From assembly GCA_000934665.2 (NCBI GenBank), contig JYFJ02003163.1:1-48655 (forward strand): 48,655 nt of DNA, written 5' to 3'. Below are positions 442 to 3,706 of the stretch, piece by piece (position 1 is the first letter of the stretch; each line of letters begins with the position of its first letter). A model generated the notes under the pieces. That model worked only from the letters and a program-made list of their open reading frames with translations. It made no database searches and had not been told where the DNA came from. The stretch comes from Catajapyx aquilonaris (taxonomy: Eukaryota). Both the position numbers and the translations under genes were made by a program.

Positions 442-1013
442 ATGAAGTTGTTAGTGAGCTTAATCATTCTGGCAAGTAAGTATTACATGTAATTTAAGAC
501 TGCATTGATGGGACCACCACTTTTAACTTCAAAAAAATATGAAATTAATTATTCGCGAGAATAATAATTTCCACTAAAACTAAACAAATTCTGTCACTTT
601 GTGTGTGTCTAGTTGTGGCAATCAGCAACTGTCAGGATGTGAATGTCTGCAAGTCATTCTGGTCGAAAGAAGAGTTGCAAAAATACGAAGCGGATCAAGA
701 AGCTCTGCAAAAGGCTCTGCAATCTGGCAACTCAGATGACATTAAGAAGGCGACATGCGCGTATGAACATCAACTCACAATAACTTGCCTCCATTTCAAG
801 TGCGAATTTCTTCCAGAATCTTGGACGACACCATAATATGCGTGAAAGAGATGGCCGAAAAGGGAGATGTCATCCAACGTGAATTGGCCAAACAGCTTTT
901 GCCCAGACTAGAAAAGCGTCGAGTGAGTACATGTCATCAGAAATGTCATGCATTGAAATATGATATGTCAATGGCCTCTTTGGGTATTTCAGAGTGATCT
1001 GTGTGGACAGTGA
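442..1013 (+). CDS. Small secreted 4-Cys protein, paralog 1 (102 aa; exons 442-475, 613-760, 817-922, 993-1013)
   Basis: Kozak CCACCATG at 442; all introns GT-AG (phases 1,2,0) and frame-consistent; AATAAA at 1085-1090. Protein MKLLVSLIILAIVAISNCQDVNVCKSFWSKEELQKYEADQEALQKALQSGNSDDIKKATCAILDDTIICVKEMAEKGDVIQRELAKQLLPRLEKRRSDLCGQ with a hydrophobic signal peptide. An acceptor ending at 413 suggests an upstream 5'UTR exon. Confidence 0.88.
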
Positions 1014-2586
1014 GAACCTGATTTTTATTTCTCATGACATCATTAAGATATACATGTAATGAATTGTGATGGATGACAATGGGAAATAAAATGTGCGACA
1101 AGGTTGCGTTCGGTTGAATACCTGGAACACTTAATTATCTTTAGATAGCACCTACATAGGTACTAAACCGAATGACAGCAGTAATGAGTATGGAAGGTAC
1201 TTTATATTTAAGCATTTGGGCGTGATAAATTTCAAGTTTGTTTCATTCGAATTATTTTCTACAACAATTTCAGAGAAATATGGAACTTATACTTAACTAC
1301 ACGAATGAAAAACAGTATAATAAAATATCATAAAGTAAAGGCAAAACATTTGTGAACTAATTCAAATCAGGTATTGCAAATCCGAAATATGTTACCCACA
1401 TATTTGTGGTATTTAAAGTCATTTTTACAGTTGAAAAAAAAAATCATTGCATCTTGCTCTTGCTCTGACGAAACTTTAATTCGTCATTAAGCTGGCACCC
1501 AAATTAAGATACTGAGTTCTTAGCTGTAAAATTATATTTCACCGTAGAATATGATGTTAAATCAAACAAGCTCCTGTGCCACAGCAAATACCAGCAACAT
1601 GACCTTGCGCCCACACTGAATAGATTAGATAATAATTATGAGATATATGGGATATCATTGTATTCATCTCCACCTGCGATAGTTTAGAAGTCTCAAGCGC
1701 AGCGGCGGATTTCCCATTAGGCACAATAGGCACTGGCCTAGGCATTTCCTTTCGCACACCTGACACTAAAGAAAGTGCAGCATACACCTAAGATATTTTC
1801 CTGATGACTGTTAAAAGTATCGGAACCTCTTTGGCAATAATTAAGTTAATTATATTTTGAAGCATATGCATTTCAATATTTACAGTATCATACAAAGATA
1901 TTTCCCAAATAGTATGTTCTCGCTTACTTGTTAGTTTTCTGCACAATTTGCAATACTGTAATGACAGTCGCAATGAGTGCAGAACATACTACATCCACAT
2001 GAAGTTAAAATTACCAAGAAATAATAATGTGCTTATCTGGGTGAAAATAATTTTATTCAGTGAAAATATGAAGGGCCAGTTTGGGCTTTAAAATGCGTGA
2101 TTTTTTTGCAATAAAATGCTATTGATTTCCGGGACACTCTGTCAAAACAATGTATTAAGGAAGTGGTTAACCACTCGATTGTGGAGTACCAAATTCAAAG
2201 AGTAGCAAGGAGTACCAAAGAGTACCTGGTAGTACCACTGCAGGTGTACACCGGAGTCCTATCAGTTATTCCACGAAGAAAAGTCATAGGTCTACAGCAT
2301 AGGAGGATATCAAAGTAAACTGATAATAATAATCACAGGGACGCTTCATTCCCTTTTCACATCTAAAACGTAACAAAGTACAGCATACGCCTACACTTTC
2401 CTGTTGACTGTTGAAAGTATCGGAACCTCCTTGGCAATAGTTTATCACATTTTAAAGCCTATGCGCGTCAAAATTGTCCGAGGCTTCATACGAGTATCTT
2501 GATAGAGACAAAATATTACGTAATCACTTAGTAACCCTAGGAGAGATTATCTTATCACCTGTCTTCACAGATAACTTTGTCGATTT

Positions 2587-3706
2587 ATGATATCTACAAT
2601 CTTTTTTTTTGTTCTCTTTACTTCGGGTTATTTAATGGAACTTCAGAACGATGCTTCATATATAACACGACCTGCTGTCGAGGTCTGAGCATATACAAGT
2701 ACTTATAGGATCATTCAAGATCGACGTCAACAAACGCAATGAAGACCATATATTTGTCGCTGTGTATCCTGGCCGGTACGTAAATCCATTCAGCCAAATC
2801 TATCAACATTTTTTTTACACATCCTATCGGAATTATTATATACCGATACGTCGACTCTGCTAACCGTGGCATGACTGGCCACCTCAGACCTTTCCTCGAC
2901 CTGACGACCCGTATGACCTCCCCGCCCGCCTGTCCCGGTTTTTTCCTAAAAAATTTGAGAAATATCGTCGTTATTTCCATAGAAGTGTTTGGGCCGAAAT
3001 TAATCTAGGGCGCATCGTAAGATTCTAAGTACGGTATAAGTTTCAAAGAACAGTTCATTAAAGAGGATTTGACTAAACGGTTCATCTTATGGGAGCTCAA
3101 TATATTGAGAGCATTCTTTACAAGCTTGATATTTCTGACAAAAACTTTTTCTGTTACAATTCTAGCTGTGGTTATTAGCAACGGCCAAGAGTCACTGGAT
3201 GAGGTGTTCCCAGGTGCCATTGTACCCACGAATCTGCCTTGCAACCCAACCGTCGATGATGGGTCAGCATTTGTCAAAGCTTTGACTGGTACTGATGCTC
3301 AGGCCATCCATGATACGCTTTGCAAGTGAGTTTTTCAGCAATGAGTTATCTGCATTAAAGGTATTTCAAGGAAATTAAATAATGTCATTTTAAATCCTTC
3401 TAGGGCTGCATACTTTGACACAAAATCGTGTTGGGAAGGCTTGGCAAAGAACGATACCTCTAACTGGAAGGCCCTTGCAACAGACATACTTAAAATAGGC
3501 GGTGTAAGTATTCTAATGATTTTATTCTTAGTGAATGAAAAATATCTGTGCATCGTGCATGCAAAATATGTTTTAATATGAACGTAAAAAGACGTCATCA
3601 TCATAAATGGTAACGATATCATCACATTTTATGTTTGCCAACTGTACGGACCACGAATCATTTTGATCAGTCCTTATTGCTGAATCTCCTCGCATGTGGT
3701 CATTAA
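2587..3706 (+). CDS. Small secreted 4-Cys protein, paralog 2 (111 aa; exons 2587-2626, 3166-3325, 3404-3503, 3671-3706)
   Basis: Same exon number and phases (1,2,0) as paralog 1. Protein MISTIFFFVLFTSAVVISNGQESLDEVFPGAIVPTNLPCNPTVDDGSAFVKALTGTDAQAIHDTLCKAAYFDTKSCWEGLAKNDTSNWKALATDILKIGGSLLLNLLACGH. An acceptor ending at 2570 precedes the ATG. The first donor (G|gttatt) is weak, so exon 1 is the least certain. Confidence 0.8.

Follow-up and report, generated by a model that had tools for sequence, protein, structure and literature searches.

Candidate tandem genes for small four-cysteine secreted proteins at one end of a Catajapyx aquilonaris contig

Introduction

Does the left end of contig JYFJ02003163.1 of the Catajapyx aquilonaris assembly GCA_000934665.2 hold two genuine protein-coding genes, and, if so, to which family would their products belong? 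A first-pass annotation of the 48,655-nucleotide stretch analysed here, which we call the window, had described a tandem pair of compact genes at this end, here termed A and B, nested antisense in an intron of a KIF26 gene and encoding fast-evolving, helical secreted proteins, perhaps gland, venom or seminal products or odorant-binding-like carriers. If expressed, these two unannotated genes would enlarge the set of small secreted proteins, each confined to one lineage, that escape automatic annotation, and they would be of use for annotation and for studies of the secretome, of pheromone and lipid carriers and of gland products in the host arthropod. The pair is a common case of such proteins, worth annotating and unsurprising: it opens no long-standing question, and nothing in it points to an unusual mechanism.

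Results

Two four-exon genes with the same architecture

Rebuilt from the sequence, gene A spans positions 442–1013 on the plus strand, and its spliced coding sequence stays open for 102 codons before the stop. A TATA-like box (TATATAAG, 369–376, plus strand), located by sequence reading and a regular expression, lies 66–73 nt upstream of the ATG. Coding exon 1 (442–475) begins with this ATG, covers the first 11 codons of the signal peptide and one further nucleotide, and ends at a GTAAGT donor; exon 2 (613–760; donor GTATGA, phase 2) encodes the end of the signal peptide, the presumed cleavage site before Gln19, Cys24 and Cys60; exon 3 (817–922; donor GTGAGT, phase 0) carries Cys69 and, at its end, K-R-R; and exon 4 (993–1013) contributes six codons, with Cys100 in a terminal C-G-Q, and the stop TGA. 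The three introns measure 137, 56 and 70 nt (phases 1, 2 and 0), and an AATAAA at 1085–1090 (plus strand), 72 nt past the stop, is the likely poly(A) signal.

Gene B, rebuilt in the same way, spans 2739–3706 on the plus strand and is open for 110 codons before the stop. Its TATA-like box (TATATAA, 2659–2665, plus strand) lies 74–80 nt upstream of the ATG. Coding exon 1 (2739–2775; donor GTACGT) starts at the ATG and covers 12 codons of the signal peptide and one further nucleotide; exon 2 (3166–3325; donor GTGAGT, phase 2) encodes the end of the signal peptide, the presumed cleavage site before Gln20, Cys38 and Cys65; exon 3 (3404–3503; donor GTAAGT, phase 0) carries Cys75; and exon 4 (3671–3706) adds eleven codons, with Cys108 in a terminal C-G-H, and the stop TAA. 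The introns are longer here (390, 78 and 167 nt) and again in phases 1, 2 and 0. The ~560 nt after the stop lack a poly(A) hexamer, which counts against B being a real gene; the nearest such hexamers on the plus strand are ATTAAA at 4272–4277 and AATAAA at 4313–4318.

All six introns begin with GT and end in a pyrimidine-rich stretch and (C/T)AG; the four coding exons and the 1-2-0 phase series given for both genes in the first-pass annotation are confirmed, with open coding sequences throughout. Both precursors start with M-K followed by a hydrophobic run and then V-x-I-S-N-x before Gln (V-A-I-S-N-C in A, V-V-I-S-N-G in B), and on sequence reading the preference for small residues at −3 and −1 of the cleavage site is satisfied by Ser and Cys in A and by Ser and Gly in B; this leader ending and the shared C-G-x-stop terminus had been noted earlier and were found again in both genes. 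The predicted mature products would have 84 aa (9.56 kDa, pI 5.1) for A and 91 aa (9.61 kDa, pI 4.6) for B. Each has four cysteines, spaced X35, X8 and X30 in A and X26, X9 and X32 in B, exactly the figures claimed beforehand, and in B the first of them is preceded by a Pro-rich, probably unstructured stretch of 18 residues. The rebuilt models thus support a tandem pair of compact signal-peptide genes with four mature cysteines, and by the look of their sequence A and B look genuine. We consider it probable that they are real, tandemly duplicated arthropod protein-coding genes and that their family is lineage-restricted and goes unnamed in current libraries.

Relatives among known proteins

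Searches for relatives and families in Pfam, the PDB and protein collections used single exon pieces of 33–52 aa as queries, a length at which sensitivity is limited. Three of the four main exon pieces had no Pfam match at E up to 10, and exon 2 of A gave one sub-threshold match of coiled-coil type (16.6 bits vs a cut-off of 24.5). Among PDB sequences the four pieces found nothing credible, the best E being 0.034 for a stretch of APOBEC3C that we judged to be chance, and neither exon-2 piece, from A or from B, had a match in a word-indexed collection of 5.8 billion proteins. HMMER with exon 2 of B against 1.84 billion representatives returned five matches at E ≤ 0.001, in proteins of 505–1545 aa with 3–11 matching stretches each; these were rejected as repeat artefacts, the three of the five that were inspected being internally repetitive and unrelated.

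In the ESM Atlas, the A piece had no usable match, and the B piece (52 aa, including a remnant of the leader) retrieved bacterial hypotheticals and periplasmic-binding N-termini at 0.92–0.95, which we set aside as uninformative. Scans of metagenome and viral contigs gave chance matches only: a metagenome match proved to be a high-GC bacterial ABC-ATPase gene that shares one 8-mer pattern with the query, and a viral one an ORF that shares the pattern S-K-E-E-L-Q-K-Y.

For exon-sized queries the protein collections contained no identical or similar transcript-derived protein, a result that counts against A and B being expressed genes of a lineage-restricted family. In the literature, which is unsearchable by sequence and in which absence is unproven, we found no named family with the cysteine frame of A or B. 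The first-pass annotation had recognised no named family, and none matched in any search run with these exon-sized queries, from which no family is assignable to A or B at the sequence level.

Fold and comparison with described families

AF2 without an alignment predicted three helices for residues 19–60 of A (21–27, 30–49 and 52–59) at a mean pLDDT of 81. For residues 20–65 of B the model was poor (pLDDT 52), with 26 coil residues followed by helices at 46–51 and 56–64, which counts against a common helical product of the two genes. The earlier claim of helical proteins therefore stands for the modelled first half of A, where helices are shown, and is weak for B, where they are hinted at. When exon-2 and exon-3 pieces of A were co-folded as separate chains, the result gave no support (score 0.03, mark 0.34) and is evidence neither way.

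An alternative that we regard as unlikely is that A and B belong, as strongly diverged members, to some already described family of helical, disulfide-stapled proteins; the most plausible candidate would be a saposin-like protein (SAPLIP) minus one of its three disulfides, and a minus-C odorant-binding protein (OBP) or a chemosensory protein (CSP) would be less so. Against such membership, within the reach of queries as short as 33–52 aa, the four main exon pieces gave no match to SapB_1, SapB_2, PBP_GOBP (PF01395) or OS-D at E ≤ 10, and in Foldseek against the PDB the 42-aa A fragment had no match at E ≤ 0.001, its best being 3.4.

Sap domains measure roughly 80 aa, and A and B come near that size. 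SAPLIPs, as characterised in PMC3184995, are small secreted or luminal helical domains with little sequence identity among members and with six conserved cysteines forming three disulfides, which run from helix 1 to the C-terminal end and to the last helix and, over about 9–13 residues, from helix 2 to helix 3; in the two hookworm SAPLIPs covered there, the short-span disulfides are Cys39–Cys49 and Cys42–Cys56. A and B match the layout of four of these six cysteine positions, with one cysteine in the N-terminal part, a central pair and one cysteine two residues from the C-terminus, and their central pair is spaced by 8–9 residues vs 9 and 13 in the two solved SAPLIPs of that source (PMC3184995). 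Cysteine layout, size, the helical first half of A and the low identity among SAPLIP members speak for such a relationship; the presence of four cysteines per mature protein rather than the six of the same description and, in B, the Pro-rich stretch ahead of the first cysteine set the pair apart. A and B may thus resemble, in layout only, a SAPLIP lacking one outer disulfide, but because the six defining cysteines are absent and no SapB match was obtained we do not file them as SAPLIPs.

With OBPs and CSPs, A and B share an arthropod host, tandem arrangement, a signal peptide, a mass of roughly 10–14 kDa and a presumed helical, disulfide-stapled build, and both minus-C OBPs and CSPs have four cysteines (PMC5464669; PMC8445084). 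The mature A and B proteins are shorter, however, and their cysteines are spaced differently from the published patterns. For OBPs the pattern is given as C1-X25-30-C2-X3-C3-X36-42-C4-X8-14-C5-X8-C6, the minus-C form being without C2 and C5; for CSPs it is C1-X6-C2-X18-C3-X2-C4 (PMC8445084). From the OBP pattern we derived a minus-C OBP spacing of about X29–34, X36–42 and X17–23. The A/B spacings of X35/26, X8/9 and X30/32 fit neither the minus-C OBP, the classic OBP nor the CSP pattern in the form quoted, and the odorant-binding-like identity put forward in the first-pass annotation is disfavoured by this misfit to the OBP pattern of PMC8445084.

In evolutionary pattern alone, a conserved leader with a variable mature part, A and B are also like the mussel MgCRP-I peptides, a multigene family with a highly conserved pre-region and invariant cysteines in an otherwise hypervariable mature part, according to PMC4558851. 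On the same description, MgCRP-I differ from A and B in being short six-cysteine mollusc peptides, and they have no sequence relation to them.

Paralogy of A and B and controls for chance

The two ATGs are 2297 nt apart. In the leader, A and B have the same residue at 12 of 20 aligned codons, and at six of these the codons differ. In global alignment the full-length precursors reach z = 5.8, a score attained by none of 2000 residue shuffles; for the mature parts z is 3.3 and the score is reached by 4 of 2000 shuffles. Identity between the mature proteins (20 of 83 residues) is equalled or exceeded in 161 of 1000 codon-shuffled controls. Because such controls match the mature identity, homology over the whole length rests on architecture and cysteine placement, not on sequence. 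The sparse core alignment described in the first-pass annotation is reproduced by the global alignment, whose full-length score exceeds chance. Similarity is concentrated in the leader, and the mature bodies are tied together by architecture. Identity by codon position (0.45, 0.53 and 0.31) was rejected as evidence of coding constraint, since the codon-shuffled controls (0.38, 0.47 and 0.27) reproduce the excess at positions 1 and 2, and an alignment of the two promoters was uninformative.

The architecture agrees in detail. In each gene, intron 2 (phase 2) immediately follows the codon of an aligned Cys (Cys60 in A, Cys65 in B), and intron 3 (phase 0) precedes a Ser codon. Three mature cysteines out of four align; the first, at mature position 6 in A and 19 in B, does not, and this counts against the pair being of one family. 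C-G-x-stop endings occur eight times in the six frames of the window, two of them being the predicted last exons of A and B. A scan of both strands of the 48.7 kb for a mini-exon starting M-[KR]-hydrophobic with a GT[AG] at 28–46 nt found only two ATGs, those of A and B; counted as site/length combinations, the two make three, whereas 50 block-shuffled controls average 0.98 and reach 4 at most. No third paralogue was detected in the window by tblastn of the spliced A and B sequences or by an A+B HMM run over 2091 ORF pieces: both matched only the exons of A and B themselves, the next best E being 3.8. From these features of the sequence, A and B are taken as old tandem duplicates.

A less probable alternative, to which we give little weight, holds that the two models are non-functional, either mosaics of ORFs that are never transcribed or duplicates in decay, with frames left open by chance. 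It would account for the failure of exon-sized queries to find a homologue anywhere in the protein collections, for a mature-body identity no higher than in shuffled controls and for the repeat-rich, gene-poor region in which the pair lies. It has to contend with the fact that both copies keep the ATG, signal peptide, six good splice sites, identical phases, four cysteines and stop, and keep them intact despite saturation of the leader at synonymous sites; decay would break at least one of the twelve splice sites or 212 codons, and the TATA box stands at a similar distance in both copies. That A and B are prohormones or peptide precursors cut into smaller bioactive pieces instead of folded domains is highly improbable: each has an N-terminal Gln after the leader that is able to cyclise, and A has its K-R-R site six residues before the C-terminus, but B lacks a basic site of this type, amidation signals and repeated peptide units are missing, and four cysteines across the whole length suggest a single folded domain.

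Proposed maturation and role of the products

If A and B are, as we think probable, tandemly duplicated genes of a lineage-restricted family, each would have a TATA-type promoter of its own and a transcript whose four short exons are joined by splicing, and the resulting precursor of roughly 100 aa would enter the ER by means of its N-terminal signal peptide. Cleavage before the conserved Gln would leave an acidic product of ~9.6 kDa (84 aa for A, 91 aa for B). Two disulfides are expected, most likely C1–C4, linking the very C-terminus with the N-terminal part, and C2–C3, closing a short central loop, so that a compact and presumably largely helical domain would be secreted.

The pair offers a clean example of how leader and intron architecture can be kept while the body changes almost past recognition. 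Retention of leader and architecture with a body diverged almost to randomness is the pattern seen in secreted proteins that act as binders or effectors, and A and B might carry small hydrophobic ligands, bind membranes or lipids, or be gland products. The contrast of conserved leader and diverged body would likewise fit the fast-diverging secreted family envisaged in the first-pass annotation.

A more far-reaching reading, which we hold only tentatively and think rather unlikely, is that an arthropod family of four-cysteine secreted proteins with a hypervariable body, so far undescribed, is seen here for the first time in A and B. Its fold would be its own or would derive from the saposin fold, with two disulfides, and its array would continue to the left of the window. 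Were it true, this would suggest a function at some interface exposed to diversifying selection, for instance in gland secretion, in carrying pheromones or lipids, or in immunity.

Genomic setting

The window is AT-rich (GC 0.34–0.47 in 2-kb steps), repeat-laden eukaryotic DNA in a gene-poor region. Kinesin motor motifs are absent from its six frames. No kinesin Pfam match was found in 221 of its 237 ORFs of at least 60 aa on both strands (the 16 omitted from the scan being four with exons of A or B and twelve derived from repeats), or in 212 minus-strand ORFs of 38–59 aa. With no kinesin match among these 433 window ORFs, the placement of the pair antisense in a KIF26 intron is unsupported rather than disproved: the scan covers the inside of the window, the pair sits at its left edge, exons in the left flank would lie outside it, and non-motor exons escape Pfam.

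A local repeat is present in two or three diverged copies (65–80% identity) after A, before B, after B and ~1 kb beyond, its pairs being 1936–2160 with 4110–4362 (65%), 4019–4121 with 5093–5199 (78.5%) and 1743–1880 with 2347–2475 (76%). Because it follows both genes but also occurs once without a gene, it marks no clean duplication unit, and it could be a relic of such a unit or a small dispersed element. The copies at 1936–2160 and 4110–4362 each contain an AATAAA (at about 2112 and 4313). A V-I-S-N and a D-I-K-K-x-x-C motif at 4011–4230 were considered as a possible pseudogene, and this was rejected, since they lie in the local repeat and its other copies are without both.

Elsewhere in the window, tandem arrays were found at 12419–12560 (8.4 copies of a 17-nt unit, 97% matches) and 33409–33902 (3.5 copies of a 141-nt unit, 93%), together with a 101-nt satellite in 7 copies at 17730–18417 and a (TAC)n stretch with about 98 units at 26370–26659. 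Dispersed repeat pieces pair 4920–5066 with 37576–37715 and, in inverted orientation, 5407–5452 with 21457–21502; one of these pieces holds a tRNA-like stretch, GGGATCGAACCCGG, which suggests that they are copies of a tRNA-derived SINE. Single isolated N bases stand at 20187, 33153, 35846, 42856 and 46561. An intact tRNA-Gln(CTG) gene at 46309–46382 on the minus strand, recognised both by the Rfam tRNA model (68.3 bits) and by ARAGORN, lies by itself in repeat-rich DNA that is otherwise non-coding.
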